A stretch of 64,000 bases of DNA, taken from NCBI GenBank assembly GCA_018304605.1, contig JAGVVU010000034.1, positions 3,555-67,554 on the forward strand. The letters run 5' to 3'. This DNA comes from Candidatus Aenigmatarchaeota archaeon. Its GTDB lineage: Archaea; Aenigmatarchaeota; Aenigmatarchaeia; GW2011-AR5. The notes under the pieces are model-generated. The model was not told the DNA's origin and did no database searches. It worked only from the letters and a program-made list of their open reading frames with translations. Made by a program: the position numbers and the translations under genes. Every line of letters begins with the position of its first letter. The first letter of the stretch is position 1. Below, in pieces: positions 1 through 57,757 of the stretch.

Positions 1-150
1 AATTCTGATGGACGCAAACAAACAGACGAATGCCAGCAGTCTGCGTCGTTCTGTTGAAAAGATTGTAAGAAAATATATTAAAGCACCTTGATCATTCCCA
101 GAACTGCTTCGGACTTGTTTTCCGGGTTTGCGGATATCACATGTTCTGAT

Positions 151-254
151 ATACCCACACCTTTAGGTGTGGGTTTGTTTTGAACATGGGATCCCGAATG
201 CGCCTCTAATACATGCCGCCTAAAGGCGGCAGTTTCAGGCGCATTCAAGATGAA
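151..254. repeat. Structured repeat element, copy A: hairpin cccacacctttaggtgtggg, then a 10-bp outer stem gaatgcgcct/aggcgcattc enclosing the inner hairpin gccgcctaaaggcggc
   Basis: Near-identical copy at 30231-30334 with compensatory substitutions in both hairpins. Read directly from the sequence. Confidence 0.8.
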
Positions 255-346
255 CTCGTCTCTCTAATTTTCTCCAACAGGCGGTTTGCATACTGAATAC
301 TAACCGGACCAAGAAAAATAAAAATTAGAGTTAAAAGAAAAAATCT

Positions 347-10689: not shown

Positions 10690-10773
10690 TTACTCACCAT
10701 ATTTTTATAGTGAACCCACAAAAGAATCCGGACACGTCTGTGGGTTCACATACAGTGCACAAGGAAGTAATAA

Positions 10774-11616: not shown

Positions 11617-11622
11617 AATCGA

Positions 11623-12882: not shown

Positions 12883-12887
12883 TTCAA

Positions 12888-21312: not shown

Positions 21313-21386
21313 ACCCGACCCGAAAGCTTTCTGTCAGCATAAGCTGGCCACAGGCTTGCATGCTACCAAGCTACACTATAGCTGCC
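21294..21386 (-). tRNA. tRNA-His(GUG) with encoded G-1 and an intron of about 19 nt after position 37
   Basis: G-1 opposite discriminator C73. Acceptor GCAGCTA/TAGCTGC. D arm GTGT-AGCTTGGTA-GCAT. Anticodon loop CTGTGG. T arm TCGGG-TTCAAAT-CCCGA. Confidence 0.7.
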
Positions 21387-21795: not shown

Positions 21796-22064
21796 AATTC
21801 AATGTTAAGAAAAAAGCTTATAAGTGTCACTAATCAAAATAGGAGACGGTATGGTTCCACAAGGAGCATGCTACATAACTCCCTTGTGAACTATATGTGA
21901 ACCCAGAAAATACGAGAGGGGTTAACAATATGGCAGGCTTTCTAATCATAGCGGATATCCTGAACGGGATTAAGATTAGCCAGTAAACCATAAGCTGTCC
22001 CTGCTTCTTTTCTTTTCCAAGAATTTCCGCGGGGACATACAACTGTAAAACGAGGTGCATAGAA

Positions 22065-30188: not shown

Positions 30189-30230
30189 GAGTAGAATTTA
30201 TTGAGAAAGAGATTAAAATCACATCTTCCT

Positions 30231-30334
30231 TATATCCCACGACTAAAGTCGTGGGTTTGTTGGAAGATGGGATCCCGAATGCGCCTCTAGTATATGCCGT
30301 CTAAAGACGGCAGTTTCAGGCGCATTCAAGATGA
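30231..30334. repeat. Structured repeat element, copy B: hairpin cccacgactaaagtcgtggg, then outer stem gaatgcgcct/aggcgcattc, then inner hairpin gccgtctaaagacggc
   Basis: About 93% identical to copy A over the 3' 80 nt. All differences inside stems are compensatory. Confidence 0.8.
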
Positions 30335-30339
30335 AATTA

Positions 30340-39670: not shown

Positions 39671-39806
39671 GGGCCGGTAGCTTAGCTTGGTAGAGCATCT
39701 GTCTTATATGACGTGCTTTGATAATAAACAAAATCAAAGCATTTGGCGTGACATCGTCATTGTCTAAGCCAGCAGAAGGTCATGAGTTCAAATCTCATTC
39801 GGCCCA
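39671..39806 (+). tRNA. tRNA with anticodon UAU (Ile, AUA-reading) if spliced at the canonical 37/38 site; intron of about 63 nt
   Basis: Acceptor GGGCCGG/TCGGCCC with discriminator A. D arm GCTT-AGCTTGGTA-GAGC. Anticodon stem TCTGT/GCAGA with loop CTTATA|intron|A. T arm ATGAG-TTCAAAT-CTCAT. The intron has an 8-bp hairpin GCTTTGAT/ATCAAAGC. Confidence 0.6.
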
Positions 39807-39815
39807 CCTTTTTTA

Positions 39816-40811
39816 TTATAATCTTGGTCCCTTTTGAAGCATATCAGCCAAAATTCTGTATCTGTTTTCTTTCCACGGTTTGTCCTCAGGGCCCCTGATA
39901 TAAGGCTGGACCCAGTGCCTTACAATTCCGGCTCTGGTATGATACCTGTGGAAAGCTCCCCTGACCCATTCCCTGTACTCCATTTTTGATTCTTCTTCTC
40001 TGTTCCTTTCTCTTGCTTCGCTTTGTCTTACATCAATCCAATAATACGGCTTTAGATTTGGCAAAGGCTTTTTGCCGTGTCTAATACGCCTCGCATTTAT
40101 TCCAGATAAGCCTCCGTTTTGCCTGTCTTCGCGCCTTACTGTAACATTATGCGCATTGATATAACTTATTGTATTAAGACAAAGGCCTGTCATCCCTGAA
40201 TAAAAATTCACGTTCATGGGAGGATTGGGTCTTGTTAACATATTGGTCTCAAACAGAGTCCCGTTGGCAAACTCTTCTGGCCTGAATACCAGATGTAACT
40301 TATCCGAGCCGCATATAACATTATCAGGCAAGTCAAATTCCTTCATTGTATCATAAAAAAACAGGAAAGAAAAGGTTTTTCCAGACATTTCAGCATGCTG
40401 AGCGATTGCCCACCTATAGAATGGGTCTGCATCGATTGATTTGCCAACCATCATGGCTGTTAATCTTGTTTTTTCCCCATGTATACGCTCTACTTCAAGC
40501 GGGTCCATTAATTCGAAAAACATAACAGGAAAAGGTAATCTTGTAGCTGTTTCATAATCTGTATATTCTGGTGGCATATGGTATAGATCGTCTACCACCG
40601 CTCCATTCAAGAGAAACAACTTGGACTTATCAAGCACCTGTAAAGTATGTCCTATTATATCCCTTTTGGTCGTTCGATATGCATTATTATCCATTACTTG
40701 CACTTTGCCATCTGCGTATGATGTCTGAATATCCGGTCTGTGAGGTTTCTGCAAGGCGGTTTTATATCTACTCACCAGATGATCAAAATACACCTGTCTT
40801 TGTTTTGTCAT
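39816..40811 (-). CDS. ORFan protein (331 aa, Arg/Trp-rich C-terminus) immediately downstream of the tRNA
   Basis: Long clean ORF with no recognisable motif. Ends 10 nt from the tRNA 3' end. Confidence 0.45.
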   Translation of the reverse strand: MTKQRQVYFDHLVSRYKTALQKPHRPDIQTSYADGKVQVMDNNAYRTTKRDIIGHTLQVLDKSKLFLLNGAVVDDLYHMPPEYTDYETATRLPFPVMFFELMDPLEVERIHGEKTRLTAMMVGKSIDADPFYRWAIAQHAEMSGKTFSFLFFYDTMKEFDLPDNVICGSDKLHLVFRPEEFANGTLFETNMLTRPNPPMNVNFYSGMTGLCLNTISYINAHNVTVRREDRQNGGLSGINARRIRHGKKPLPNLKPYYWIDVRQSEARERNREEESKMEYREWVRGAFHRYHTRAGIVRHWVQPYIRGPEDKPWKENRYRILADMLQKGPRL

Positions 40812-40974: not shown

Positions 40975-42621
40975 ATGAACGGACAATATGGAGGACAGCC
41001 AATATTTATTCTGCCGGAAGGCACGCTCAGGACTACTGGGCGCGACGCGCAGTCGCAGAACATAGCTGCGGCAAAAGCAGTGGCAGACCAGGTACGCACC
41101 ACTCTTGGACCGAAAGGCATGGACAAGATGCTCGTGGACAGCATAGGCGACGTCACAATCACGAACGACGGCGCAACGATACTCAAGGAGATGGAGATAG
41201 AGCATCCTGCTGCAAAGATGATAGTTGAGGTTGCAAAGACCCAGGAAGACGAGGTCGGCGACGGCACAACGACTGCTGTAGTCCTTACTGGAGAACTATT
41301 GAAAAAGTCAGAACTGCTTCTTGAACAGGACATTCATCCTACTATGATAATACGCGGCTATCGTCTGGCTAAAAACAAGGCGCTTGAGATAGTCACGAAG
41401 CTCGGGGAAGATGTGACAATAAACGACACGGACATGCTTGAAAAGATAGCCATGACTGCCATGACAGGCAAGGGCAGCGAGGCTGCAAGAGAGCCGCTGG
41501 CAAAGCTGGCCGTCCAGGCTGTCAAAACTGTGGCGGAAATTCGCAATGGAAAATCGGTCATCGACAAGAGCGACGTCAAGATAGAGAAGAAACAGGGCGG
41601 ATCTATAGATGACACAGAACTCATCAGAGGCATAGTCATTGACAAGGAGATCGTTCATTCGAACATGCCAAAGCGTGTGCAGAACGCAAAAATCCTGTTG
41701 CTGGACGCGGCCTTGGAAGTGAAAGAAACAGAAACCAGCGCGGAAATCAGGATAACGGATCCGCACCAGCTCCAGGCATTCATAGAGCAGGAATCCAGGA
41801 TGCTCAAGGACATGGTCAAGAAGGTCGTGGACAGCGGCTGCAACGTTGTCTTCTGCCAGAAAGGGATTGATGATCTGGCACAGCACTATCTGGGCAAGAA
41901 TGGCATAGCTGCCGCAAGGCGAGTAAAGAAGAGCGATATAGAAAAGCTCGCAAAAGCCACCGGAGCCAACATAGTTTCGAGCATAGACGAGCTGACAAAA
42001 GAGGATATAGGCTTCGCAGGGCTCGTGGAGGAGCTGAAGATGGCAGGCGAAGAGATGATTTTCGTCCGCGACTGCAAGGACCCGAAGGCCGTTTCAATAC
42101 TGGTAAGAGGCGGAACTGAGCATGTCGTGGATGAGGCGCAGCGGGCCATGGACGATGCAGTTCTGGGCATAATAAGCGCAGTCGAAGTCGGCAAATTTGT
42201 CGCCGGCGGCGGGGCTGTTGAAATAGAGCTTGCAAGAAAATTGCGTGAATACTCGGATACAGTCGGCGGCAGGGAGCAGTTGGCTATCAATTCGTTTGCC
42301 GAGGCAATCGAGATAATCCCCCGCACCCTTGCGGAATCAACGGGAAAGGACGCAATTGACTTGCTTGTTAACCTAAGGACGATGCATGAAAAGGGAGAGA
42401 CGACTTTCGGCATCGACGTCATGAGAGGGGAGCTCGCAGACATGAAGGCTCTTGGCGTAATCGAGCCGCTGAAGATAAAGACACAAGCCATCAAGTCCGC
42501 CAGTGAAGCGACAGAAATGATCCTCCGCATAGACGACGTAATCAAGTCGAGGGCCCCGTCAGGCCCGCCGGGTGGAATGCCTCCGGGCGGAATGGGCGGC
42601 ATGGAAGATTATGGGGACTAG
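40975..42621 (+). CDS. ths: Thermosome (group II chaperonin) subunit
   Basis: [25 protein letters not shown]-terminal GGMPGGMGGM tail. Confidence 0.92.
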
Positions 42622-42767: not shown

Positions 42768-43193
42768 ATGCCAATGGAAGAGGAAGAATACGAGCTTGTG
42801 CCGGTCGGTCCGCTCAGACGTATCGAGAAGCGCATGGAGAAGATAGAGAAGGGCGGAACAAGCAGCGAGATGGTCAAGGAGCTTATTGATGTAGTGAGGA
42901 CAAACCAAAAGATAATAGACGAGGTTGTCAAGATAAACAGTGAGATGATAAGCAAGGTTTCCGACCTGAACGCAAAAGTAAGCGAGCTCACAGAAAAGAT
43001 GAGCGACTTCCTGGAAAGGGTGGAAACAGGTAACGAGACTGAGAGCGTTGCTCCTGTTGAGCAAAAGAACCCGGAAACGGACCTGCGAATAGAGAAGCTG
43101 GAAAAGCGAATAAATTCGCTGCTCTTATCTACGATTAAGGCGAAGCAGCTGCGACCGCCGATGCCTGTCCAGAGAAGACCTCTGCCGGCGTAA
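42768..43193 (+). CDS. Coiled-coil protein at the head of the pilus/archaellum-like locus
   Basis: 141 aa, heptad-rich. Confidence 0.45.
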   Translation: MPMEEEEYELVPVGPLRRIEKRMEKIEKGGTSSEMVKELIDVVRTNQKIIDEVVKINSEMISKVSDLNAKVSELTEKMSDFLERVETGNETESVAPVEQKNPETDLRIEKLEKRINSLLLSTIKAKQLRPPMPVQRRPLPA

Positions 43194-43265
43194 GCAAACT
43201 CCAAACATTTTCTTGCGGTTTTTTCACATATTACGTTTAAATTACCCTTTCACCAAATAGTTTCT

Positions 43266-43868
43266 ATGAGATTCAGCAAGGGTCAGCAGGAGGCGTTATC
43301 TGCCGTACTGATTTCGGGCATACTCATCGGCGTAGTCGGCTCTGTCTATTTCTGGGGCGTGCCGCTGATACAGAAGAACAAAGACATCTCGCTGCTTGAA
43401 ACCTCAGAAAGTTTCATGAGGCAGCTTGACGAGAAGATCAGGTCAGTGGCAAACAATGGCGGCAGGGACCAGATAGTCATCCCAGTCCCTGGAATATTAA
43501 GCTTTGACGGGGCGGAAGTGAAGCTGACAATAGAGACACAGGGGACGATATATGCAACGGACGCGGAGATTCCGCTGGGCAGGAACACCCTGGAGCAGAG
43601 CGGCGGGGGAACATGGGGTATCGACGACCCAGTCATCTTCAACGTGAAAAGCGTAAAGATGGGGGAGAACAACTACAGGAACGAATACACGCTCATCTAT
43701 ATTGAGTTGAGGAACGAGGACTCATTGAGGGACTTCAAGATCGGGCTTACGGGTCCCAGCACCTCAGGCGGCCAGGACAATACGATAATAATGGAGAGCC
43801 AGGGAGACACGACAGCCGAATCTGCAAGGACCTTAATAACTAGCAACGTGAAAATTTCCGTCATATAG
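43266..43868 (+). CDS. Pilin-like protein with class III (type IV prepilin-like) signal peptide
   Basis: MRFSKGQ|QEALSAVLISGILIGVVGSVYF N-terminus. Confidence 0.5.
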   Translation: MRFSKGQQEALSAVLISGILIGVVGSVYFWGVPLIQKNKDISLLETSESFMRQLDEKIRSVANNGGRDQIVIPVPGILSFDGAEVKLTIETQGTIYATDAEIPLGRNTLEQSGGGTWGIDDPVIFNVKSVKMGENNYRNEYTLIYIELRNEDSLRDFKIGLTGPSTSGGQDNTIIMESQGDTTAESARTLITSNVKISVI

Positions 43869-44089
43869 AACAAATTATATTTCTGGCTCGCCGCCCGCTT
43901 TTCTTTAATCCAAAAATCTAGCTTCTTAGAAATGCTCAATGAAAACCAGCAGGGAGGGTATTGTGCTTTCACAATACCCTCTAGTTACTAACCCTATTGT
44001 GGATACACAATAGGGTTCCTGCTGGTTTTCTCATAGGCTTTCTAAGAAGCTAAAAATCTTAATATCCCGCCATGAAGAAACAATGAAAT

Positions 44090-44530
44090 ATGAAGGGACA
44101 GTACAGGATAATAAGCGAGATCATACTTTTCGGCGTCGGAATCCTCATCACCAGCTATGTCATAATAAATTTCAACAACCTGCAAAGCGCCGTGAAGGAA
44201 ATAACCCTGGACGACCAGATGAACAGCGTCGCGGATGTCGTGTCCGCGGCTGTGATCAAGGTCGCAAGCGCCGACAACGCATCAATAAGGCTTGTCATAC
44301 CCGACAAGATATCAGACAGCATCTACAGGATCGCAATAAGGGACGCCGACGGCGGCAAGCTCGTCATAAGCAAGCTTGACGGAACAGCATCCGTCGAGAG
44401 AAAACTCTTTAATATAAACTACGACAATACAATTAGCAGCAACAACGTAATCAACAACAGCGAAGTAGTGAGCAGCGCCCAGTTCATAGAGATTGTCAAG
44501 AACGAGAAGATTACGATTCTAAGGCGGTAG
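44090..44530 (+). CDS. Pilin/FlaG-FlaF-like protein with class III signal peptide
   Basis: MKGQ|YRIISEIILFGVGILITSYVI N-terminus. Confidence 0.5.
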   Translation: MKGQYRIISEIILFGVGILITSYVIINFNNLQSAVKEITLDDQMNSVADVVSAAVIKVASADNASIRLVIPDKISDSIYRIAIRDADGGKLVISKLDGTASVERKLFNINYDNTISSNNVINNSEVVSSAQFIEIVKNEKITILRR

Positions 44531-44532
44531 TC

Positions 44533-46251
44533 ATGGAGAAAAAACTTTTTTTCAAGGTAAAGGGCGGCCGGGGCTTTGCCGTGAAGCCAAGACAGGAGGA
44601 GGCCGTAAAGACGGGGCTTATCGAGTCATCAGCTGCCTTGGTGCCTGCCGCACCTATTCAGATGCAATCATTTCATCAGTTTTCGCCCCGCGTGTACTCC
44701 GTTGAAGGTGTGGCAGTGCCGGACATAAAAAGCGAGAAGATACCAGTAATAGATACGGAAGAGATTCAGCGCACCAACATAAAATATCCGCTTATACCAT
44801 CGAATCCCGCGAAAGGCGAGAGGATTTTTGCCTACGCACACATATACTTCGACAGGCGCTCGGGCGAGCTTGTCTATGACGTGATCGAGCCGCCTGTATC
44901 AGACCAGCAGCTGCTCAATTCCATAAAGGAATACATAGAGGAGAAGCTGGACATCAACTTCAGCCAGATCAGGAAGGGCGACGCAATAAGCTATCTTAAT
45001 GTCGTCTTCTCGAAAGCATTGTCGTACTTTAATACAAAGCTTGACAAGGAAGCAACTGATATACTGAGATATTACGTTGTGCGGGATTTCATAGGGTTGG
45101 AGAAGATAGAGCCGCTCATGCAGGATAAGTACATAGAGGACATCTCATGCGACGGAGCGAACATACCCATCTTCGTTTACCACAGGCTCCCGCAATTCGG
45201 ATCTGTAAAAACATCCATAACGTTCAACAACAGAGATTTGCTGGACTCTTTCGTGAACAAGCTCTCCGAGCGGTGTGGGCGGACGATATCCGTGGCAAAA
45301 CCTCTTCTTGATGGAACTCTGCCAAACGGTTCGAGGCTGCAGGCCACATTGGGCAGTGACATTGCCCGCAACGGGTCCAACTTCACCATCAGAATGTTCT
45401 CAGACAAGCCCATGACGCCTGTGGACCTGATAAAATCAGGAACATGCGACCTCAAAATGATGGCATATTTCTGGCTCCTGATAGAGCACGGATCGTCTGT
45501 TTTGATATCCGGCGGCACGGCTTCCGGCAAGACATCATTGCTGAATGTGCTCTCGCTTTTCATAAAACCTCAGATGAAGATCATAAGCATCGAGGATACC
45601 TCTGAGATAAGGCTTCCGCACATGCACTGGGTGCCGGAAGTCGCAAGAACTCCCATATCCGAGGAGGGCAAGGTGGATATGTTTGAGCTGCTGAGAGAGT
45701 CGCTAAGGCAGCGCCCTGACTACATAATAGTGGGGGAAGTAAGGGGCAAGGAAGCGTACGTGTTGTTCCAGCAAATGGCTGTCGGTCATCCGGGTCTTTC
45801 GACCATACACGCCGAGAACTTCTCAAAGCTCTTCGACAGGATGACCTCGCCGCCCATCAGCCTCCCTCCAAATCTCATGGAAAACCTCGACCTGATACTT
45901 TTCATGAAGCGCGTCAAGCAGGGAAGAAAATACAACAGGCGAATTTTTTCTGCCGTAGAGGTCGCCGGTTTCGACAGCGATGCAAAAATGCCGATAACCA
46001 ACGAGGTGTTCGGATGGGATGCCAAGAGCGACGAATTCAAGACGCTGAAAAAGAGCTCGCTCCTCAAGAAGATATCTGACATGACAGGTCTGACGGACGA
46101 ACAGATAGCAAAAGAACTGGAGCGGAGGGCTAAGGTGATAAAATGGCTCGTCAGCAAGGACATAACCGACTACAGGAAGATAGCCTCCGTCATCAGCATG
46201 TTTTATCTTTCTCCTGATTTTCTCATGGGCCGGATTGAGGGAGAAGTATAG
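44533..46251 (+). CDS. flaI: FlaI/ArlI-like secretion ATPase (VirB11/PilB superfamily)
   Basis: Walker A GGTASGKTS. Asp box. His box. 572 aa with FlaI-type N-terminal domain. Confidence 0.85.
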   Translation: MEKKLFFKVKGGRGFAVKPRQEEAVKTGLIESSAALVPAAPIQMQSFHQFSPRVYSVEGVAVPDIKSEKIPVIDTEEIQRTNIKYPLIPSNPAKGERIFAYAHIYFDRRSGELVYDVIEPPVSDQQLLNSIKEYIEEKLDINFSQIRKGDAISYLNVVFSKALSYFNTKLDKEATDILRYYVVRDFIGLEKIEPLMQDKYIEDISCDGANIPIFVYHRLPQFGSVKTSITFNNRDLLDSFVNKLSERCGRTISVAKPLLDGTLPNGSRLQATLGSDIARNGSNFTIRMFSDKPMTPVDLIKSGTCDLKMMAYFWLLIEHGSSVLISGGTASGKTSLLNVLSLFIKPQMKIISIEDTSEIRLPHMHWVPEVARTPISEEGKVDMFELLRESLRQRPDYIIVGEVRGKEAYVLFQQMAVGHPGLSTIHAENFSKLFDRMTSPPISLPPNLMENLDLILFMKRVKQGRKYNRRIFSAVEVAGFDSDAKMPITNEVFGWDAKSDEFKTLKKSSLLKKISDMTGLTDEQIAKELERRAKVIKWLVSKDITDYRKIASVISMFYLSPDFLMGRIEGEV

Positions 46252-46431
46252 AAGACACGAATTTTTGCGGATTCACTCCCAATGACATCTGATGTGCGTG
46301 CCGTTCCGCCTTGTGAATCTTCAATTCTTGCCTGTATTCTCGCATCTGCGGTCTTTAGACCGCAGCATTCAATGCATTATAGGATAAAACCTTAATATTC
46401 CCCCGTGCGCAAATCATTATTGGTGCTGTAA

Positions 46432-47267
46432 ATGAGCTATGCTGAAGTATCCTACAGGCTTTTCGGCGGTCTGGTAAAATACGCCAAGCCTTATTTTCTG
46501 GACATAAAGGAAGAGCTTCGCCAGGCCAACATCAGCTACACGCTCGAGGAATATCTTTCGATAGCGCTCCTCACGACCGCAGTCACGTTCATCATGGAGG
46601 CGATGATGCTCTCGTTCATATTCGGCCTTCTTGTCTCCCCGATAATAGCCGTAATACTGGCATTGACGCTTTCGATGACGATATCAGGCATACTGTTCTT
46701 CCTGTTCTACTCGTACCCGACAACCGCCTCGAAAAGCAGGGGGACCAAGATAAAGAAGATACTGCCATTCTCCGTTTCCTATATGGCGACGATAGCGAAG
46801 TCGAATGTCCCTCCCATAACCATATTCAAGACACTGAGCGAGTTCAAGGAGTATGGCGCATAGTGAGGGATGTGGAGTTGTTCGGCATGACAACTTCGGC
46901 AGCCATAAAGAAGCAGGCAAAGATAACACCGTCGAAAGAATTCAGGGATCTCCTCTTCGGCATAAATACAATGATAACAAGCGGCGGCAACCTCGGGTCG
47001 TATCTCAAGGACAGAAGCAATGAGCTGATGGGTGACTACAGAAGAAGGATAAGAAAATACTCTCAGGACCTCTCGCTTTATGTCGAAATGTACCTAACAC
47101 TCATAATAACAGGCTCGATATTCTTCATAGTCCTCTCATCCATCATATCGACCATCTCCGCCGGTCTGGGCACGATCCTTGTCCAGACGTTCGTTGTATT
47201 CATCCTCCTGCCGCTGCTTTCCATAGGCTTCATAATACTCATCCGTGCCACGTCCCCGACAGGCTAG
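46432..47267 (+). CDS. flaJ: FlaJ/TadC-like membrane protein, N-terminal domain, interrupted by TAG and a frame change at 46861-46865
   Basis: Two ORFs (46432-46863 and 46863-47267, the second with a GTG start overlapping the TAG) together form one TadC-like polytopic domain. Confidence 0.55.
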
Positions 47268-47342
47268 CATCACGCATAAATTACCCGGCTGAATTGTGTT
47301 TTTAATCCCAGCGCCCAATTATAATGATATGCTCTGATATAA

Positions 47343-47437
47343 CCCACATCTAAAGATGTGGATTTCTATGAGCATAGCATCCAGAATGCATTGAGTTTCA
47401 TCACACGACTAAAGTCGTGTGTTTTCAATGCATTCTC
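47343..47437. repeat. Structured repeat element, copy C (divergent): hairpin cccacatctaaagatgtgg, then 11-bp outer stem gaatgcattga/tcaatgcattc enclosing the inner hairpin cacacgactaaagtcgtgtg
   Basis: Same architecture and conserved GAATGC/GCATTC and CTAAAG loop as copies A and B. Sits between the FlaJ N-domain and C-domain genes. Confidence 0.7.
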
Positions 47438-47463
47438 GGATAATAAGCGGGGTCGTCCAAAGC

Positions 47464-48429
47464 ATGAAAAAAAGCTACAGAACAAAGGAGTCTAGGATCG
47501 GCAAAGAGCGCAAAATCCTGATAGTTTCTGTCGTCATTTTTCTGACGCTTGTTTCAGTCTCTGTCTATATAGGCAGCATTGCTCTGATCGCCAATATGCT
47601 CTTCCTTGGGATGCTCATAATAATCGTGCCATACAGCCTGTACAAATTCTTCCGCCTCAAAAAAATCAGGTCCTATGAGAATGACTTTCCTAATTTCCTG
47701 AGAGACATATCAGAAAGCCTGCGCGCGGGGCTTTCACTCATACAGGCGATACAGGCCACATCGAAATCCGACTACGGCGCGCTCACTGGTGAAATCAAAA
47801 AGATGAATAATCAGCTCAGCTGGAATATCACGCTGGATCGCGTGCTCAAAAATTTCGGGACCCGAATCCCAGACAGCAGGATAATAACCAGATCACTCAT
47901 GATAATAGACCAGGCAAACAAGTCTGGCGGCAATATAGAAGACACGATGGATTCCCTTGCAAATCACATAGAGTCGATAAAGGAGGCGCAGCAGGAAAAA
48001 TCCGTCCTGCTGAACCAGCAAGTCCTCATGATGTACGCAATCTTCTTCATTTTTGTCGGCATAACGATTGCTCTCATCAAGTTCCTCATTCCACTCCTGC
48101 AAACACAGTCCCAGACGGGTGGATTCGGCGTGCAGGGCTTCAATCCCAATCCCTGCTCGCTGTGCGGGAATAATCCGGACCTCGCCTGCATGGGTTGCAA
48201 CACGTTCTCAACAATCTCACAGGCTTTCGAGCTTGGCGATCCAAGAGAGGCATCTTCATACTACAAGTCGCTGTTCCTGGCGATGATACTGATACAAGGC
48301 TTCTTTTCAGGACTAATAGCGGGCCAGATAGGCTCCGATTCAATAGCCGTGGGAATCAAACACAGCCTGATAATGCTCCTGAGCGGCTTCATAATTTTCA
48401 TACTTCTGATAAAAACAGGAATAATATGA
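47464..48429 (+). CDS. flaJ: FlaJ/TadC-like membrane protein, C-terminal domain
   Basis: FPNFLRDISESLRAGLSLIQAIQA (TadC signature). Multiple TM helices. Start moved to the ATG at 47464 (RBS GGGG) out of the repeat hairpin. Confidence 0.7.
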   Translation: MKKSYRTKESRIGKERKILIVSVVIFLTLVSVSVYIGSIALIANMLFLGMLIIIVPYSLYKFFRLKKIRSYENDFPNFLRDISESLRAGLSLIQAIQATSKSDYGALTGEIKKMNNQLSWNITLDRVLKNFGTRIPDSRIITRSLMIIDQANKSGGNIEDTMDSLANHIESIKEAQQEKSVLLNQQVLMMYAIFFIFVGITIALIKFLIPLLQTQSQTGGFGVQGFNPNPCSLCGNNPDLACMGCNTFSTISQAFELGDPREASSYYKSLFLAMILIQGFFSGLIAGQIGSDSIAVGIKHSLIMLLSGFIIFILLIKTGII

Positions 48430-48551
48430 CTCTATAACGGAAAAGATGCTTGTTGCGCTCAAGAGATGACAAAAACGGAGAATACCGAGGACGACGCCTC
48501 CTGCGTCGGTCTCCTTTGCGTCTTTTCAACTTGGAAAGAAAGGGGTTTATA

Positions 48552-49067
48552 ATGAAGGGAATTGCCGAACTTGAATTTATCATCTCAGTTTTCGTCTTCA
48601 TAACTACGATATCTTTCGTGACCTTTCTCATAATAAACAACATACCCATACTTCACAGCGCCTCGGTCTCGGACGGCCTGAAATCCAGAAGCTATCAATA
48701 TTCTGAGCTGCTCCTGTTCGACGAGGGCGCGCCGATGAACTGGGAAAATGACCCGCAAAGCGCGGACCGCATCGGCTTGTCTAATGGCAGAAGATATTTT
48801 GCTGACAAAGACAAGATTGATGCGCTCGCAAGCCTCTGCTTCGATTACCAGCTTGCCAAGGAAAAGCTTGCCCTGCAAAAAGAGGATATAGTCATAGAGG
48901 TGTCTTATCTGGATGGAGCGGCAGTGAGCGGGTCCTCGGCAGCAATATGCAAGCCACCTGTCACCACGCAATTGAGGTCGCAGTTCCAGATCACAAGGTT
49001 CGGCGTTCTTCCGCTGCCGGCAGGCACATATGTTGTGAAGATCAAGGTAACAATCATAGGCGACTAA
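48552..49067 (+). CDS. Pilin-like protein with class III signal peptide
   Basis: MKG|IAELEFIISVFVFITTISFV. RBS GGGG upstream. Confidence 0.5.
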   Translation: MKGIAELEFIISVFVFITTISFVTFLIINNIPILHSASVSDGLKSRSYQYSELLLFDEGAPMNWENDPQSADRIGLSNGRRYFADKDKIDALASLCFDYQLAKEKLALQKEDIVIEVSYLDGAAVSGSSAAICKPPVTTQLRSQFQITRFGVLPLPAGTYVVKIKVTIIGD

Positions 49068-49089
49068 AGCAGAAAGAGAGGAATCTGTA

Positions 49090-50133
49090 ATGAAAGGGTT
49101 CGCAAAAATTTTTGAGGCAATAGTTGCATCGATTGTTCTCTTAGCGTCGCTGACATTTTTCTTCACACCTAATGTTCAGAGGTCTGGATGGGACAGAGCC
49201 TCGCTGCAGATCCTTGTAGAAGACGCGCTGGAAAGCGCCTACTTGAACGGGACCCTTGAACGTTATGTCAAGACCGACAACACCACTCAGCTGAATATGT
49301 TATTTTCTGCTATGTTACCGAAGACCGTTGACTTTTCGATAGAGGTCAGTGGCATCCCTGGCAAAACAATTAACATAGTGTGTGTCGACTGTAATCAGGC
49401 TAACATGGATGACCTTTCTGCAATACTCGACCCGAGAGATTTCAGCTACAAGATGAAGAACACGAGCATACGTATCGAGCCGCTCGTTCTGGCAACGCAA
49501 AACATACCGGAAAGCACAAACATGCTCTTCTTTTTCGACAAAACAAAAATATCAGCATACCAAACAAAAATAAACGATTTCCTTAATGCCAGTGGAGGCG
49601 TGTTCCTTTTTGCAAATTTAGATGCTGGCGACGTCGGGAATACTTCTGTAGGCAACACGTTCGGCCTTGTGTGGGGTGATATCACAAACCTGCCCGGAAG
49701 ATTTGGCAACGTATACGATGCAAGCTTGCCAGGGCATTTTGTCGCAAGATATTATGCAAATATATCAACCAGGCACCTTCAGGACGTACAGAGCGAAACA
49801 TTCACAGCATTCTTGCCAACAGGTATAAGTGGCCAGAATGACCAGAGGAACGTCGTCAGGACTGATAATGACAGGGCATACGTTCGGACGAATGAGGTTG
49901 GACAGGGCAGGACCGTATGGTTCCAGGATTATGCAAGGTCTGACCATGACAACCAATTTACAAAACAGATTGACAATCTTACAAAAGCATCGATAATGTG
50001 GGCTAGCGGAGAGCGTTCAAAGCTTGACATGATCAAAAAGACACCGGCTCCAGTGAATTTCAAGTCGAGCATATTCGTGTACGACGGGGACAACTACATA
50101 ATCGAACTGACCATATGGAGGATATTTTTCTGA
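49090..50133 (+). CDS. Large pilin-like/adhesin protein with class III signal peptide
   Basis: MKG|FAKIFEAIVASIVLLASL. 347 aa, N-glyco-sequon-rich. Confidence 0.5.
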   Translation: MKGFAKIFEAIVASIVLLASLTFFFTPNVQRSGWDRASLQILVEDALESAYLNGTLERYVKTDNTTQLNMLFSAMLPKTVDFSIEVSGIPGKTINIVCVDCNQANMDDLSAILDPRDFSYKMKNTSIRIEPLVLATQNIPESTNMLFFFDKTKISAYQTKINDFLNASGGVFLFANLDAGDVGNTSVGNTFGLVWGDITNLPGRFGNVYDASLPGHFVARYYANISTRHLQDVQSETFTAFLPTGISGQNDQRNVVRTDNDRAYVRTNEVGQGRTVWFQDYARSDHDNQFTKQIDNLTKASIMWASGERSKLDMIKKTPAPVNFKSSIFVYDGDNYIIELTIWRIFF

Positions 50134-52911: not shown

Positions 52912-53406
52912 ATGATAAAAAATATCAAGATACCGGAGGAGCGGCTTCCTGTGCTGATCGGGAAAAATGGAATGACAAAAAGGTCCATACAAAGAAAGAC
53001 AAAAACGAAAATCGACGCAAGCGAGGAAGAAGTAATAATAGAAGGCGAATCCATCGGCGTCCTGGACGCGGAGAGTATAATAAAAGCCATCGGGCGCGGC
53101 TTCTCTCCCGTGCATGCGGAGCTGCTGCTGGACGAGGACAATACATTCCTGATAATAGAGCTTCCCAAGGGTGAAAAGACATTGAAAAGATTGAAATCAA
53201 GGCTGATAGGTACCAGAGGCAAGTCGCGGCGCAATATAGAGAGGCTCACAGGCACCTATATTTCCGTTTACGGCAAGACTGTTTCGGTGATTGGCAAATA
53301 CAGCAATGTCAACATGGCCGAGCAGGCTGTACAGAAGATTATAAAAGGTATACCACACAGATTTGTATACGAATTTCTGGAGGCACGGCAGGATGAGCGA
53401 GCATAA
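52912..53406 (+). CDS. Double-KH-domain RNA-binding protein (Dim2/Pno1-like)
   Basis: VLIGKNGMTKRSIQRKT and LIGTRGKSRRNIERLTG GxxG loops. Confidence 0.7.
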   Translation: MIKNIKIPEERLPVLIGKNGMTKRSIQRKTKTKIDASEEEVIIEGESIGVLDAESIIKAIGRGFSPVHAELLLDEDNTFLIIELPKGEKTLKRLKSRLIGTRGKSRRNIERLTGTYISVYGKTVSVIGKYSNVNMAEQAVQKIIKGIPHRFVYEFLEARQDERA

Positions 53407-55020
53407 AAAAGCGGAAGACTTCGCGAAGGAGCAGAAGGAAATCAGCGTGAGCGAATTCTTTGAGAAAAACAAGCACCTTCTTGGATTTGACAACCCTACA
53501 AAGTCGCTGCTCATGGCAGTGAAGGAAGCTGTTGACAATTCTCTGGATGCCGCAGAGGAAGCAGGAATTCTTCCGGACATAACAGTCAAGATAAAGCAGG
53601 TGGACGAGAACACTTACATAGTTTCCGTGGCAGACAACGGACCGGGAATCGTCAGGGAGAACGTTCCCCGCGTATTCGGAAAGCTTCTGTATGGGAGCAA
53701 GTTCCACAGGCTGCTTCAGGGCAGAGGCCAGCAAGGCATCGGCATAAGCAGCGTGACACTCTATGCCCAGCTCACCACAGGGGTGCCGACAAAAGTCTGG
53801 TCGAAGGTGGAGAGCAAGAAAAAGACTTACTATTGTGAATTGCACCTGAATACTGCAAAGAACGAGCCCGACGTAATCAAGGAAGAGGAAATAGACAAGG
53901 AGGTCGTTGGTGAGCATGGCGTCAAGGTCGAGATGGAGATACACGGGCGTTACAGAAAAACCGTAGAGGATTACCTAAAGCAGACTTCTATCTCAAATCC
54001 GTTTGCCAAAATCGCATACACGTCTCCGGATGGAACGAAAACGGTTTTCCCGCGCTCACTCAATGATCTGCCAAAACCTCCTAAGAGGATGAAACCGCAT
54101 CCGCACGGCATGGAATTCGGAATTCTGCAACGCCTGCTCCAGAACACAAGCTCGCGTACACTGCTCTCTTTCCTGACGAACGAATTCTCTTCTGTAGGCA
54201 GTCAGAGCGGAAAGGAAATATGCAAACTGGCAAAAATTCCGGAAGATACAAAGCCGCAGGAACTTGACAGGATTGCGATAGAAAAGCTCATCCCCCGACG
54301 GACTGCTTGTCACCCATCGGTTCAGCGGAACTTGAGAAAAGCCTGAAGAAAGAATACCCGAACGCGGAATTCGTGACCTCAATAACAAGAGATCCTGAAG
54401 TTTACAGGGGGTTCCCGTTCCTCATAGAGGTCGGGATTGTTTATGGTTTGGGCGATGAAGTGCAAGCAAAAAGAAAAAAGGAAAACGATGATGACAAAAA
54501 GGAAGACGTGATAGAATTGATAAGATTCGCGAACCGGGTGCCACTGCTCTACCAGCAGAGCGCCTGCGCGCTGACAGAGGCGGTCAAGGATGTGGACTGG
54601 AGGCGCTACAATCTCTCGCAATCAGGCAGCAACCTTCCGTCGGGTCCTATGAAGCTGGTGATACACATCTGCTCCGTCTGGGTCCCGTTCATGTCCGAAA
54701 GCAAGGAGGCCGTTGCTGCATACCCGGAGATAATAAAAGAAGCGAAGCTTGCAATACAGGACGCTGGCCGCAAGCTCTCATCGTACCTGAGCGGAAAGCG
54801 CCGCGCGGGAGAGCAAAAACGCAGGATGCAGATGTTCGACCGCTACGCCGGCGAGGTGTCCGACGCACTGGCAATACTGACAGGAAAGAACGACAAGGAA
54901 ATAGAAAAGAAGCTCAGGGCACTCGTAGAGAGCAGGGTGCACATCAAAGAAGAGTTTGTTGACGAATCCGTAGAAATGTCGGATGCCAAGAAAGGGATAA
55001 AATCTGAAAAGAAACCATAA
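53393..55020 (+). CDS. top6B: DNA topoisomerase VI subunit B, interrupted by a frameshift in a C5 run near 54290-54300
   Basis: GHKL ATPase motifs (EAVDNSLDA, DNGPGI, GRGQQGIGIS) are in ORF 53363-54346. The transducer domain is in ORF 54307-55020. The frames rejoin if one C is added or removed in atcccccgacgg. Confidence 0.8.
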
Positions 55021-55047: not shown

Positions 55048-56124
55048 GCAAAAGAAGTCAAGAAAGAGCTGCAAAAACTCGGGGACAAGCTGCTACAGGA
55101 CATAGAAAAGAAGGAAAACCCGAGCATAGAAATACCTATACGGGCATTATCCAACGTTGTCTTCGACAAGAAACTGGGTCAGCTTACCCTGGGGGACAAG
55201 ACTGCGAAAAGATATTACTTCAACGTGGCGCACGCAAAGAAATTCATGCAGACCGCGATGGTTGCTTCATTCTCAAAGCAGCTGATAGACCAGAACATAC
55301 ATGCGAGCATCAGAGACATGTTCTACAACCTGAAGCGCACGCTCCCCGACAGCAATGAAAACACTTTTGACGAGCAATCAGAAAGCGATCCGATAATAGT
55401 CGATCTGGAAGTCGCAATAGATGTGCTTCGCGAGCAGCTTCACCTTACTACGGACAGAAAGGGGATAGTCGCCGGCAATGTCATCATCCAGGACAGGGGT
55501 GACAATATAGACTGGTCAAAGCTTGGCAGCGGCGGATGGTCTATCCCGAGTACGGTGGATGAAATCACGTTCAAGAAAGTCGATGCGGAATTTGTCCTGG
55601 TCGTAGAGAAGAACGCAGGATTTGAGCGCCTGCATGAGGACAAGTTCTGGCAGAAGCACAAATGCATACTCGTCGGAACCGGAGGCCAGCCATCCCGCGG
55701 CACAAGACTTCTGATACAGAGGCTGAATCAGGAGCACAAGCTGCCTGTTTACGTATTTTGCGACGCGGATGCATACGGCGCATATATTTATTCCGTAATA
55801 AAATCCGGCTCCATCAGCCTTGCGCATGTCTCCGACCGCATCTCAACGCCAAGCGCGAAATTCATCGGCTTGACCATAAGCGATGTGTACGAGTATGACC
55901 TGAAGAAGGCAACCATAAAGGCGAAAGACGTCGACATAAAGCGCGCGAAGGAGATGCTGAATTATGAATGGTTCAAGAAGAACCCGAGATGGCAGAAAGA
56001 GCTGAACCTCATGATAGAAAAGGGCATAAAAGCGGAAATAGAGGCTCTCTCCCACAAGGGCCTGAAGTTCATGTCGGAAACCTACCTGCCGGACAAGCTG
56101 AAGAAGAAAGATTTCCTAGACTAG
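55048..56124 (+). CDS. top6A: DNA topoisomerase VI subunit A (Spo11 homologue)
   Basis: Winged-helix plus Toprim. YVFCDADAYG acidic Toprim motif. Confidence 0.9.
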   Translation, partial: AKEVKKELQKLGDKLLQDIEKKENPSIEIPIRALSNVVFDKKLGQLTLGDKTAKRYYFNVAHAKKFMQTAMVASFSKQLIDQNIHASIRDMFYNLKRTLPDSNENTFDEQSESDPIIVDLEVAIDVLREQLHLTTDRKGIVAGNVIIQDRGDNIDWSKLGSGGWSIPSTVDEITFKKVDAEFVLVVEKNAGFERLHEDKFWQKHKCILVGTGGQPSRGTRLLIQRLNQEHKLPVYVFCDADAYGAYIYSVIKSGSISLAHVSDRISTPSAKFIGLTISDVYEYDLKKATIKAKDVDIKRAKEMLNYEWFKKNPRWQKELNLMIEKGIKAEIEALSHKGLKFMSETYLPDKLKKKDFLD

Positions 56125-56899: not shown

Positions 56900-57042
56900 C
56901 AAGGTAGCTCAGCTCGGGAGAGCACATAGTGTGAGGAAAACCTCATATTAGCTTAAACGGCTGAAGTTTAGGCAGGAACCGTACTGTAAAACACTGGTTT
57001 TATAGGTTTAAGCTGTCGAGGGTTCAAATCCCTCTCTTCCCA
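56900..57042 (+). tRNA. tRNA-like gene with about 70 nt of insertions; acceptor pairing and anticodon unresolved
   Basis: Canonical D arm GCTC-AGCTCGGGA-GAGC. Stem CTTAA/TTAAG flanked by a 9-bp helix AGCTTAAAC/GTTTAAGCT. Variable loop CTGTC. T arm GAGGG-TTCAAAT-CCCTC. The 5' CGCAAGG does not pair cleanly with the 3' TCTTCCC. Confidence 0.4.
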
Positions 57043-57757
57043 CTGCAATTTCAACTTTCCTTATATGTTTAGGATTATGAAATCCAATTTTTCCCATCCA
57101 GTTCTTTGCGTTTTTTCTTCCATTGATATAAATTCTACTTCCTTTAGAAGAGAAACCTCGATTGTCATTAACGATGGTGTCATATTCTGTATACATTGAG
57201 AACCCCATTTCTTTTAGAATTAATTCTAATTGTTCAACAAGTTTACGACTCTTCTGTTTTACTGAAATTACAGGATAATTATGTCCTTGTTTTTTTAATG
57301 ACACGGAACCATCAGTGTCGAAAAGTCCTCGAATGAATGGAATTATGAATTTTTTATTTTTGAGAATAAATTTGGGTATTTCTATGTTATCTTTTGGTCC
57401 AATATTGAATCCTATATCTTTTAGGAAATAAAATAATCCTTTTGATCTTGTTATAATTCGGATTGTATTTTGACCCTTCAGCTTTACGGGTTTTAATTTT
57501 ATATTGAATACCCTGAAAATTAAAGGCACTATAAAATTATCTATATACTCTTTGTCGTCAGTAAAGGAGCACGTTATAGAAATAGAGTATTCTGATGCCG
57601 TGCCGCCTTTAAACCGGTATTTGTTAATGCTTCCGTCACCTGTCATAATGCCTAAAAATTCTGCAAGTTCTTCAGATAAAACTACAGGCAATTGTAGACC
57701 TTTTCTTTTATCTCCGTAAGTAATGATTGATTTCATGTGATCACTTATGGACTTCAA
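57008..57757 (-). CDS. LAGLIDADG-family (double-motif) homing-endonuclease-like protein
   Basis: LAEFLGIMTGDGSI and IPFIRGLFDTDGSV. The C-terminal 12 codons are antisense to the T-arm of the tRNA-like gene. Confidence 0.7.
   Translation of the reverse strand: MKSISDHMKSIITYGDKRKGLQLPVVLSEELAEFLGIMTGDGSINKYRFKGGTASEYSISITCSFTDDKEYIDNFIVPLIFRVFNIKLKPVKLKGQNTIRIITRSKGLFYFLKDIGFNIGPKDNIEIPKFILKNKKFIIPFIRGLFDTDGSVSLKKQGHNYPVISVKQKSRKLVEQLELILKEMGFSMYTEYDTIVNDNRGFSSKGSRIYINGRKNAKNWMGKIGFHNPKHIRKVEIAVGREGFEPSTA

Follow-up and report, generated by a model that had tools for sequence, protein, structure and literature searches.

The locus examined here lies within a 64-kb window (the whole stretch of DNA that was analysed) and comprises genes for a coiled-coil protein, an assembly ATPase, two platform proteins and four prepilin-like proteins, with dispersed repeat elements in the spacers. 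Its features are as follows:

42768..43193, forward strand: cc141, coiled-coil protein of 141 aa, no signal peptide and no transmembrane segment
43266..43868, forward strand: pil200, prepilin-like protein of 200 aa, DUF7289-like, class III-like N-terminus, candidate major pilin
43905..44065, no strand assigned: intergenic Y-shaped inverted-repeat element with 58-nt arms, member of a dispersed repeat
44090..44530, forward strand: pil146, prepilin-like protein of 146 aa, DUF7266-like, single copy, candidate minor pilin
44533..46251, forward strand: assembly ATPase of 572 aa, GspE/VirB11/FlaI superfamily, PilB3-like C-terminal domain
46316..46389, no strand assigned: repeat copy D, partial single-hairpin version of a double-hairpin repeat, in the ATPase-F1 spacer
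46432..47267, forward strand: F1, first platform gene, one T2SSF domain, 285 aa when intact, counterpart of the FlaJ N-terminal half
47324..47445, forward strand: repeat copy C, 120-nt double-hairpin dispersed element with covariation, in the F1-F2 spacer
47464..48429, forward strand: F2, second platform gene of 321 aa with one T2SSF domain, counterpart of the FlaJ C-terminal half
48552..49067, forward strand: pil171, prepilin-like protein of 171 aa, DUF7287-like, class III-like N-terminus, candidate minor pilin
49090..50133, forward strand: pil347, large prepilin-like protein of 347 aa, weakly DUF7288-like, candidate tip/adhesin subunit

The first-pass annotation of this DNA had noticed four N-termini with [KR]G followed by a hydrophobic stretch (43266, 44090, 48552 and 49090), and this class III-like motif is indeed retained in all four families, for each of which 47-95 homologues were aligned. 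With the predicted cleavage site written as a slash, pil200 starts with MRFSKG/QQEALSAVLISGILIGVVGSVYFWG (QQEAL directly after the site; conserved in 95 sequences), pil146 with MKG/QYRII..., pil171 with MKG/IAELE..., including a Glu at +5 from the site, and pil347 with MKG/FAKIF.... Across all six frames of the window the motif occurs in eight ORFs, four of which are these genes. The families match the archaeal DUF7289, DUF7266, DUF7287 and DUF7288, not archaellin: DUF7289 is matched by 34 of 42 pil200 homologues, DUF7266 by 21 of 38 pil146 homologues and DUF7287 by 10 of 38 pil171 homologues. For the four proteins of the window itself, the Pfam scores stay under the cut-offs (17, 26, no match and no match; for pil146, 26.3 bits against the 27.6 bits required for DUF7266), so that DUF membership is visible at the family level only.

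The AlphaFold2 (AF2) model of pil200 (pLDDT 85) combines a helix (residues 5-64) with a beta-sandwich, i.e., the "lollipop" shape of pilins; a Foldseek search gave no significant match to solved pilins, and a profile search found no PDB sequence. Because the family is often multi-copy (1-3 copies per locus) and the modelled fold has this classic shape, pil200 is likely the main subunit. The pil146 family, with its conserved KGQ and hydrophobic stretch, always lies directly upstream of the ATPase, and in the window its stop codon is 2 nt ahead of the ATPase start. The AF2 model of pil347 (pLDDT 89) shows the N-terminal helix followed by a bundle of helices, an alpha/beta domain of ThuA/GATase1-like type, for which Foldseek gave 2gk3, 3soz and 1t0b (E about 1e-5), and a C-terminal beta domain. 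The protein has seven N-glycosylation sequons, and its family ranges from about 120 to 790 aa, a size variation that, together with the fold, suggests a tip adhesin.

The coiled-coil protein proposed at 42768 was substantiated by a strong 3.5-residue hydrophobic periodicity in residues 30-95 that was matched by 0 of 2000 shuffles. A further 43 homologues were aligned, all from the same place upstream of the pilin genes, and they share an N-terminal motif (EEYE-l-v-P-x-x-P-i-R-r-LE-k-R) and a Pro-rich tail; Pfam gave weak coiled-coil-type matches only. No signal peptide or membrane segment was found in cc141, and judging from its sequence it looks cytoplasmic.

What had been called a FlaI-like ATPase is a secretion ATPase with a T2SSE domain (111 bits) and a PilB3_C domain (33 bits), and its Walker A motif (GGTASGKT), Asp box, Walker B motif (DYIIVGE) and His box are all intact. 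It is 100% identical to a protein from a Candidatus Aenigmarchaeota MAG and 87% identical to that of archaeon GW2011_AR5 (AR5), in keeping with the earlier suggestion of a DPANN-like symbiont. The FlaJ N-domain and C-domain are, as had also been proposed, encoded by separate genes. Intact F1 aligns with FlaJ across the latter's N-terminal half and has 93% amino acid identity to AR5 with a dN/dS of 0.03, while F2, which has an ATG start, five hydrophobic segments and a T2SSF score of 63 bits, covers positions 181-396 of the 465 of the FlaJ model and is annotated with 321 aa in sibling assemblies. The view of this split as something unusual had to be abandoned: the ATPase, F1 and F2 are adjacent separate ORFs in 70 of 81 related loci, and separate platform genes are therefore the normal, near-universal state of the family. 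Two tadC genes are likewise common in euryarchaeal Clade 2 pili (Makarova et al. 2016, PMC4858521).

The repeat between the platform genes is present as announced (copy C); AR5 has another element in this position. Copy D has a hairpin, CTGCGGT-CTTTAG-ACCGCAG, at 46346-46365 and matches model R1 weakly (16.9 bits). The inverted-repeat element at 43905-44065, whose spacer folds at -87.8 kcal/mol (z = -10.5) and which has an 85% identical copy in L105 (76-202), stands outside the pilus machine.

The survey of 81 non-redundant related loci spans Aenigmat-, Undin-, Nanohal-, Parv-, Nano-/Woese- and Micrarchaeota, and the full eight-family cassette is collinear in 28 of them, in several DPANN phyla. 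Purifying selection is strong on every gene of the locus (dN/dS 0.02-0.10). In the window, the sibling assemblies and AR5, housekeeping genes border the cluster: a thermosome gene upstream and, downstream, those for DAHP synthase, NMD3, eIF-1A, a KH protein and Topo VI. We are confident that this part of a Candidatus Aenigmarchaeota genome carries a functional cluster for type IV pilus-like assembly, of the cluster-2 DPANN kind and related to euryarchaeal "Clade 2" pili. As far as its sequence can tell, the product is most likely a working adhesion or host-contact pilus, and its likely use would be the attachment of an episymbiont to surfaces or host cells.

The known workings of type IV and archaeal pili allow a mechanism to be proposed. 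The four prepilin-like proteins would insert into the membrane via their N-terminal hydrophobic helix, and an A24 prepilin peptidase, presumed to be encoded elsewhere in the genome, would cleave them after [KR]-G. The hexameric ATPase would dock onto a platform of the two single-domain T2SSF proteins, arranged like TadB/TadC, and, driven by ATP, raise pilins from the membrane into a filament stacked through their N-terminal helices. In this scheme, pil200 would form the bulk of the filament, and pil146, pil171 and the large, size-variable and sequon-rich pil347 would be minor pilins that prime assembly and occupy the tip, with pil347 conferring binding specificity. The coiled-coil protein may be an accessory that perhaps binds the ATPase or the platform.

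Type IV filament machines serve DNA uptake and secretion besides adhesion, and the machine might thus be mainly an uptake or secretion device, e.g., a pilus for the import of DNA or nutrients or a short host-contact pseudopilus. DNA import via pili has been speculated on in DPANN papers (PMC9563170; PMC5498576), the pil347 domain is of the ThuA/GATase1-like alpha/beta type and does not have the plain Ig-like fold of an adhesin, and conservation of the cluster goes strictly together with that of a cytoplasmic coiled-coil partner. However, no gene for a DNA-binding or channel component (e.g., ComEA or ComEC), a retraction ATPase or a secreted substrate is linked to the cluster in the window or the 81 loci, and in haloarchaea the homologous PilB3 system is responsible for adhesion to surfaces (PMC4858521); we consider this use unlikely.

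The attachment pilus would be unable to assemble if F1 were truly broken in this strain. In the window, a 22-nt gap after 46858 splits the gene into 46432-46863 and 46863-47267, with a TAG at 46861-46863 and continuation in the -1 frame, and neither an N-run nor any other sign of a scaffold join is seen at this site. The stop and frame change of the first-pass annotation are thus present in the window sequence, but not as a biological feature, since the gap is specific to this record. It is missing from all six sibling loci compared (L004-L007, L088 and L089), which are otherwise about 99.7-99.9% identical to the window and keep the intact 285-aa F1. The truncated 143-aa product is on record in no public assembly, whereas the proteins neighbouring F1 were read on 19-22 contigs. 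Further gaps of 80 nt (37870/1), 31 nt (54291/2) and 4 nt are private to the window, one of which, that of 31 nt, splits the essential Topo VI-B gene, a pattern that indicates a problem of the record; N-run gaps occur in scaffolds from the same site. A true inactivating deletion is accordingly quite improbable, and we read the frame change as an artefact of this sequence record. The locus is an ordinary, intact representative of a gene cluster that has been described before across DPANN archaea; its kind is already known and not new.

A degenerating or minimal archaellum, i.e., a motility operon stripped of archaellins, FlaH and accessory genes, is hardly credible: the best NCBIfam matches of the ATPase and both platform halves are FlaI/FlaJ models, and relatives go under the name "flagellar protein FlaI" in some sources, but the scores stay under the curated cut-offs (415 versus 550 bits for the ATPase against FlaI, and 108 versus 550 and 59 versus 400), the non-archaellar Archaeoglobus fulgidus GspE (2OAP, 365 bits) ranks ahead of FlaI (273 bits) in the PDB, the pilin-like genes are members of families other than archaellin, and DPANN-wide collinearity in 28 loci under purifying selection is unexpected in a decaying operon. 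Archaellin, a KaiC-like FlaH and an A24 prepilin peptidase were absent from Pfam scans that covered about 70 ORFs of the window, as the annotation had stated, and no FlaG/F gene was found within the 64 kb. Its alternative of archaellum decay hence falls, the frame change being a gap in the record, and its preferred non-archaellum type IV filament stands, all the more so as the same DPANN cluster has been published.

Among known systems, the archaellum shares a homologous ATPase and platform and the class III signal peptides of its filament subunits, but the locus has no archaellin, FlaH or FlaF/G, its ATPase and platform fall under the FlaI/FlaJ equivalog cut-offs, and archaellum FlaJ is a single two-domain protein in contrast to the two genes found here. 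The bacterial Tad/Flp pilus (CpaF/TadA, TadB, TadC) resembles the locus in its two separate single-domain T2SSF platform proteins and in an ATPase of the same broad clade (136 bits to CpaF structures, 158 bits to the TadA-family model). The ATPase is, however, far under the TadA cut-off of 373 bits, the pilins are large and archaeal-type, and a Flp-type pilin, a secretin and TadZ/TadD/TadG are lacking at the locus. Of the solved structures, A. fulgidus GspE (2OAP/2OAQ) is nearest to the ATPase (residues 114-569); it covers the ATPase alone, not its filament.

Several features of the locus agree with the euryarchaeal "Clade 2" pili, examples of which are Haloferax volcanii PilB3/PilC3 and the PilB4 locus, which has a pilin set of its own (PMC4858521): the PilB3-like C-terminal ATPase domain, two tadC-like genes and several pilin-like genes, including a large size-variable one, of the families DUF7289, DUF7266, DUF7287 and DUF7288. 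The published model differs in having neither a coiled-coil gene nor the ThuA-like domain of pil347, and a PilA-type pilin (arCOG02416) is not seen at the locus. TadA/TadB/TadC clusters are common to Nanohaloarchaeota and Undinarchaeota (PMC9563170). Hamm et al. 2024 (Nat Commun 15:6449; PMC11291902) describe DPANN loci in which CpaF, TadC and filament proteins are encoded together with coiled-coil proteins next to GroEL, and they report detection by proteomics in Ca. Nanohaloarchaeum antarcticus. In its gene classes, our locus corresponds to their "Locus 1" of cluster-2 DPANN type IV pili, for which we infer orthology gene by gene: both have a CpaF/FlaI-type ATPase, a TadC-type platform, filament proteins, an adjoining coiled-coil protein and a GroEL/thermosome neighbour. 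Protein cc141 is probably the "CCP" of these published loci; the coiled-coil proteins are likened there to viral attachment fibres, whereas cc141 appears to be cytoplasmic instead. The spread given there for "Locus 1", which includes Aenigmarchaeota and Undinarchaeota, agrees with our 81-locus survey.

The cluster consists of nine ORFs, representing eight genes, which all lie on the plus strand between positions 42768 and 50133:

42768-43193, plus strand: cc141, hydrophilic protein of 141 aa with weak, coiled-coil-type Pfam matches
43266-43868, plus strand: pil200, prepilin-like protein of 200 aa, N-terminus MRFSKG-QQEALSAVLISGILIGVVG
44090-44530, plus strand: pil146, prepilin-like protein of 146 aa, N-terminus MKG-QYRIISEIILFGVGILI, DUF7266 at 26.3 bits (cut-off, 27.6)
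44533-46251, plus strand: ATPase of 572 aa, T2SSE at 111 bits, PilB3_C at 33 bits
46432-46863 and 46863-47267, plus strand: F1, first platform gene, two overlapping ORFs of one T2SSF protein (285 aa when intact)
47464-48429, plus strand: F2, second platform gene, 321 aa, T2SSF at 63 bits
48552-49067, plus strand: pil171, prepilin-like protein of 171 aa, N-terminus MKG-IAELEFIISVFVFITTISFV
49090-50133, plus strand: pil347, prepilin-like protein of 347 aa, N-terminus MKG-FAKIFEAIVASIVLLASLTFFF

The ATPase has an identical (100%) counterpart in a Candidatus Aenigmarchaeota metagenome-assembled genome (MAG), in which locus tag J4400_04695 encodes pil200, and it shares 87% identity with that of archaeon GW2011_AR5 (AR5). 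Upstream, cc141 directly follows a thermosome gene (40975-42621), and downstream the cluster is bordered by genes for DAHP synthase (minus strand), NMD3, eIF-1A, a KH protein, and subunits B and A of Topo VI; the order of the flanks is the same in AR5, except that the DAHP synthase gene is missing there. By eye, A/T-rich TATA-like boxes were located 22-34 nt before the start codons of cc141 (CTTTTTATAC), pil200 (CGTTTAAATTAC), pil146 (AAAATCTTAATATC), and F1 (AAACCTTAATATTC), pil146 and the ATPase gene are separated by 2 nt, and a GGGG Shine-Dalgarno-like run precedes pil171. Judged from such visual inspection, the cluster probably comprises several transcription units rather than a single operon. 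Further upstream, a complete Rfam tRNA match over 136 nt that was missed by ARAGORN (39671-39806, plus strand) is probably an intron-containing tRNA, and the 331-aa ORF directly beside it (39816-40811, minus strand; no Pfam match), which is not found at the same position in AR5, may be an insertion next to the tRNA.

Three hallmarks of a type IV filament system are present: an assembly ATPase with intact nucleotide-binding motifs, two T2SSF domains encoded by two genes, and subunits with class III-like N-termini and a pilin fold, the latter in an AF2 model of pil200. The first-pass annotation had described a FlaI-like ATPase with TadC-like FlaJ domains encoded as separate N- and C-domain genes, and both components are present. 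The T2SSE match of the ATPase (111 bits) far exceeds the cut-off of 24.9 bits, and its Walker A motif (GGTASGKT) was read from the translation, while the Asp box (EDTSEI), Walker B motif (DYIIVGE), and His box (HPGLSTIH) were located by pattern search. T2SSF was matched by F2 (63 bits) and by the C-terminal piece of F1 (29.6 bits). On the NCBIfam FlaJ models, intact F1 aligns at positions 11-249 and F2 at positions 181-396 of 465 and 261-451 of 555, i.e., with the N-terminal and the C-terminal half, respectively, and the platform, with four hydrophobic segments in F1 and five in F2, is thus truly encoded by two genes.

The four ORFs for which [KR]G-plus-hydrophobic N-termini had been proposed (starting at 43266, 44090, 48552, and 49090) indeed carry this motif, and it is conserved in their homologues. 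In a six-frame scan of the whole window, M-x(0-12)-[KR]-[GA] ahead of a strongly hydrophobic stretch was found in only eight ORFs, four of which are pil200, pil146, pil171, and pil347; these begin with M-x(0-4)-[KR]-G and about 20 hydrophobic residues, a pattern resembling class III (prepilin) signal peptides. Alignments of 47-95 homologues per family showed that [KR]-[GA], then Q, F, or I, and then about 20 hydrophobic residues are kept in all four families, and that a Glu at +5, as is likewise carried by bacterial pilins, is conserved in the pil171 family. At the family level, the proteins correspond to four consecutive archaeal Pfam families, i.e., DUF7289 for pil200 (34/42 homologues), DUF7266 for pil146 (21/38), DUF7287 for pil171 (10/38), and, weakly, DUF7288 for pil347 (17/33, with weak matches to GATase1-like families as well); a literature search for these DUF names found nothing.

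The AF2 model of pil200 (pLDDT 85) consists of a 60-residue N-terminal helix (residues 5-64) and a beta-sandwich, for which Foldseek found no match below E = 0.06 in the PDB; profile searches of pil200 and pil347 against PDB sequences gave no meaningful match either. Structure prediction of the large protein at 49090-50133, which had been recommended as a check, yielded a pil347 model (pLDDT 89) with an N-terminal helix, a short helical bundle, an alpha/beta domain, and a C-terminal beta domain. The alpha/beta domain resembles the ThuA/GATase1-like proteins 2gk3, 3soz, and 1t0b, with E values of about 1e-5 and a target TM score of about 0.5. The protein has seven N-glycosylation sequons, and the members of its family are about 120 to 790 aa long. 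From the motifs, families, models, sequons, and sizes, we infer that pil200 is the main subunit and that pil146, pil171, and pil347 are minor pilins, with pil347 at the tip. The coiled-coil protein reported for the locus was verified as well: residues 30-95 of cc141 show a 3.5-residue hydrophobic periodicity (power of 105 versus 10.7 +/- 10.7; reached by 0/2000 shuffles). The protein lacks any hydrophobic segment, and the absence of an export signal from its sequence is hard to reconcile with its acting as an attachment fibre outside the cell.

For the analysis of conservation, one genome per species was scanned with an alignment of 12 ATPases, resulting, together with the AR5 locus, in 81 non-redundant loci, and iterative HMMs of the eight window proteins were run against every ORF of these loci; many contigs are cut, and all counts are lower bounds. 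The strict order cc141 - pil200 (1-3 copies) - pil146 - ATPase - F1 - F2 - pil171 - pil347 was present in at least 28 of the 81 loci, and the core from pil146 to pil171 in at least 38. The separation of the two FlaJ domains, which had been pointed out in the first-pass annotation, is normal for the family, since ATPase, F1, and F2 are separate adjoining ORFs in at least 70 loci and only a single T2SSF ORF exceeds 450 aa. Complete cassettes (nearly complete in a few loci) occur in Aenigmatarchaeota, Undinarchaeota, Nanohalarchaeota, Parvarchaeota, Nanoarchaeota/Woesearchaeota, and Micrarchaeota; the ATPase with two platform genes is also present in Theionarchaea, Thermoplasmata, Thermococci, and Bathyarchaeota. 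In the comparison of the window lineage with AR5, dN/dS was 0.02-0.10 for every computable gene, values that are qualitative as dS is saturated, and F1 is the best-conserved gene (93% amino acid identity).

DPANN archaea need physical contact with their hosts, and type IV pilus-like loci are leading candidates for making it. The most likely function of the locus is adhesion or host contact. A more specific reading, namely, that the cassette encodes the host-contact organelle of the symbionts and not a plain adhesion pilus, appears improbable to us. The cytoplasmic, strictly co-conserved cc141 and the large, pilin-anchored ThuA/GATase1-like subunit are both without counterparts in characterised archaeal pili. 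If it were true, these two proteins could adapt a type IV filament machine to the recognition of the host surface and perhaps also to opening the site of contact or feeding through it.

The machine is expected to work on the same principle as the archaellum. When about 70 ORFs spanning the 64-kb window were scanned with Pfam, neither an archaellin (FlaB/ArlB, Arch_flagellin) nor the KaiC-like ATPase FlaH/ArlH, FlaF/FlaG, or an A24 prepilin peptidase (PibD/FlaK/EppA) was found, as had been noted for FlaH, FlaB, and the peptidase in the first-pass annotation. Archaellum genes immediately outside the cluster, which would have made it an ordinary archaellum operon, are not present; housekeeping genes flank it directly on both sides. 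On the NCBIfam FlaI model NF058587, the ATPase scored 415 bits (cut-off, 550), and the platform halves reached 108 (cut-off, 550) and 59 (cut-off, 400) on the FlaJ models, so that none attained the equivalog thresholds. Among solved structures, the ATPase is closest to the non-archaellar euryarchaeal GspE of Archaeoglobus fulgidus (PDB 2OAP; 365 bits), ahead of FlaI of S. acidocaldarius (273 bits) and CpaF (136 bits), and its PilB3_C score of 33.2 bits lies above the cut-off of 27 bits. The combination of subthreshold FlaI/FlaJ scores, the GspE match, the missing archaellum genes, and pilins that are not archaellins rules out that the cluster is an archaellum. The proposal of a non-archaellum type IV filament in a DPANN-like symbiont is hence supported by ATPase ranking, pilin families, and gene absences. 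A degenerating archaellum, the other option initially considered, is rejected, because collinear cassettes of conserved order and low dN/dS values are not how a decaying operon would look. A bacterial Tad pilus is dismissed by a score of only 158 bits on the TadA/CpaF model TIGR03819 (cut-off, 373) and the lack of Pfam matches to Flp pilin and the RcpA secretin.

In other DPANN archaea, the gene for the A24 prepilin peptidase lies away from the pilus genes (PMC5498576). Within the window, one multi-TM ORF alone was left unexplained (10774-11616, five TM segments); it was considered as a diverged peptidase and discarded, as it has no Pfam match, and no GxGD-type motif was seen on reading. It is the first of three genes in a row on the minus strand (10774-14246), followed by 11623-12930 and 12888-14246, whose products of 435-452 aa have classical signal-peptide-like N-termini; none of the three has a Pfam match, and their products may be surface proteins of the symbiont. 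A second T2SSE ATPase (15177-16631, minus strand) was likewise rejected as a pilus component, having a KH domain and neither platform nor pilin neighbours; it is a P-loop ATPase of the PilT-like/KH type, in which the KH domain is joined to a T2SSE-type core, and probably has nothing to do with pili.

The stop and frame change reported in the FlaJ N-domain does exist in the window, where it divides F1, yet as a biological feature it does not stand and is most likely an artefact of the record rather than a sign of pseudogenisation. In sibling assemblies from the same population, which are 99.7-99.9% identical to the window, F1 is intact (285 aa), and the alignment shows that 22 nt (AGCTCAGCAAGGAGGCTGAAAA) are absent from the window after position 46858; the intact protein reads ...EYGELSKEAENIVRDVELFG..., and AR5 reads likewise. 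The truncated 143-aa product is on record in no public assembly; the neighbouring proteins were found on 19-22 contigs. A programmed frameshift or a recoded TAG at 46861 was rejected, because the siblings simply contain 22 additional bases. Further private gaps comprise 80 nt at 37870/37871 within a 144-aa gene, 4 nt at 56901, and 31 nt at 54291/54292, the last of which splits the Topo VI-B gene, an essential gene whose product has 552 aa in the siblings, into 53363-54346 and 54307-55020. A patch of substitutions and small indels relative to the siblings is located in the Topo VI-A gene (55346-55449). The gaps and this patch are suggestive not of biology but of defects of the record or of a read set that diverges. 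Absence of the 22-nt gap from all other assemblies is an observation, unlike its cause, for which collapsed scaffold gaps are perhaps responsible; one scaffold of the same aquifer data set contains an N-run gap. Caution is called for, as what looks like a pseudogene is most likely a flaw of the record.

The spacers of the cluster contain hairpin-rich dispersed repeats, including the copy reported between the two FlaJ genes:

136-256, plus strand: double-hairpin element (120 nt), copy A
30218-30337, plus strand: double-hairpin element, copy B
47324-47445, plus strand: double-hairpin element, copy C, in the F1-F2 spacer
about 46316-46389: half copy of the double-hairpin element
43905-44065: Y-shaped inverted repeat, in the pil200-pil146 spacer
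10700-10804 and 21883-21910: sites of a third family

Each hairpin of the first family has a lower stem of 9-10 bp, an internal loop, an upper stem of 7-8 bp, and a tetraloop, mostly UAAA closed by C-G. A pattern scan detected the double hairpin in 44 metagenome stretches, some of them on AR5 contigs and nearly all of them from Rifle groundwater assemblies, and a covariance model recovered about 42 full copies from Rifle groundwater Aenigmarchaeota contigs, including the AR5 genome. In 31 distinct copies, pairing was kept in 98.5% of the cells, and compensatory double changes were found in 22 of 34 pairs (slid controls, at most 7). The copies are intergenic, occur in either orientation, and have unrelated flanks. 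No Rfam family was matched by the hairpin elements when window and spacers were scanned, and the model of copy C (R1) detected none in a further 40 pilus loci of Aenigmarchaeota. The double-hairpin element does not belong to the conserved make-up of the operon; it may be either a small RNA or a MITE/REP-like element. The spacer with the Y-shaped element folds at -87.8 kcal/mol (z = -10.5), and an 85% identical copy beside a double-hairpin element in metagenome locus L105 (76-202) identifies it as a second dispersed repeat family. In the F1-F2 spacer of AR5, an unrelated third family (about 100 nt, the inverted pair I2 of the window) is located exactly at the point of copy C (L001, 10964-11063), with further copies in the Aenigmarchaeota loci L010 (two), L129, L131, and L132. 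The F1-F2 spacer looks like a hot spot for hairpin elements, and the spacer elements behave like MITE- or REP-type mobile elements and not like parts of the pilus machine. Two free-standing LAGLIDADG_3 homing-endonuclease-like ORFs (20521-21312, plus strand, adjoining tRNA-Pro at 21293-21385; 57008-57757, minus strand) lie in low-GC patches (0.39 and 0.37, versus about 0.47 elsewhere).

With respect to known systems, the euryarchaeal 'Clade 2' pili combine ATPases of the PilB3/PilB4 type with pilin sets of their own, among them a large pilin of variable size, and many of them possess two tadC-like genes (Makarova, Koonin and Albers 2016, PMC4858521). Here, too, there are two tadC-like genes and a linked pilin set with a size-variable large member, and the ATPase, given its PilB3_C and GspE matches, may be of the PilB3-like clade. 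The pilins of DPANN pilus loci have been noted to be unrecognisable (Makarova et al. 2019, PMC6393860), and TadA/TadB/TadC clusters, in which no pilins could be annotated, are common to Nanohaloarchaeota and Undinarchaeota (PMC9563170). The current study defines the cassette gene by gene, identifies four 'hypothetical' genes as prepilin-like and assigns them to Pfam families, and describes a ThuA-like domain in pil347. The cassette is made up of a coiled-coil gene, one to three DUF7289-like pilins and one DUF7266-like pilin, followed by the ATPase and the two platform genes of one domain each; a DUF7287-like pilin and the DUF7288-like pilin of variable size, which has the ThuA-like domain, complete it. 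Genes often left as 'hypothetical' are therein conserved prepilin-like genes. Two conserved type IV pilus-like loci have been reported across cluster-2 DPANN, naming Aenigmarchaeota, and in Undinarchaeota, with several of their products seen by proteomics in Ca. Nanohaloarchaeum antarcticus; Locus 1 comprises CpaF, TadC, filament proteins, a coiled-coil protein, and a GroEL neighbour (Hamm et al. 2024, PMC11291902). The present cluster, with its coiled-coil gene by the ATPase, TadC, and filament genes and the neighbouring GroEL/thermosome gene, fits this description, the match being one by description, and the kind of locus was therefore already known. The window provides a clean Aenigmarchaeota example of this DPANN type IV pilus-like cluster and leaves the current picture unchanged.
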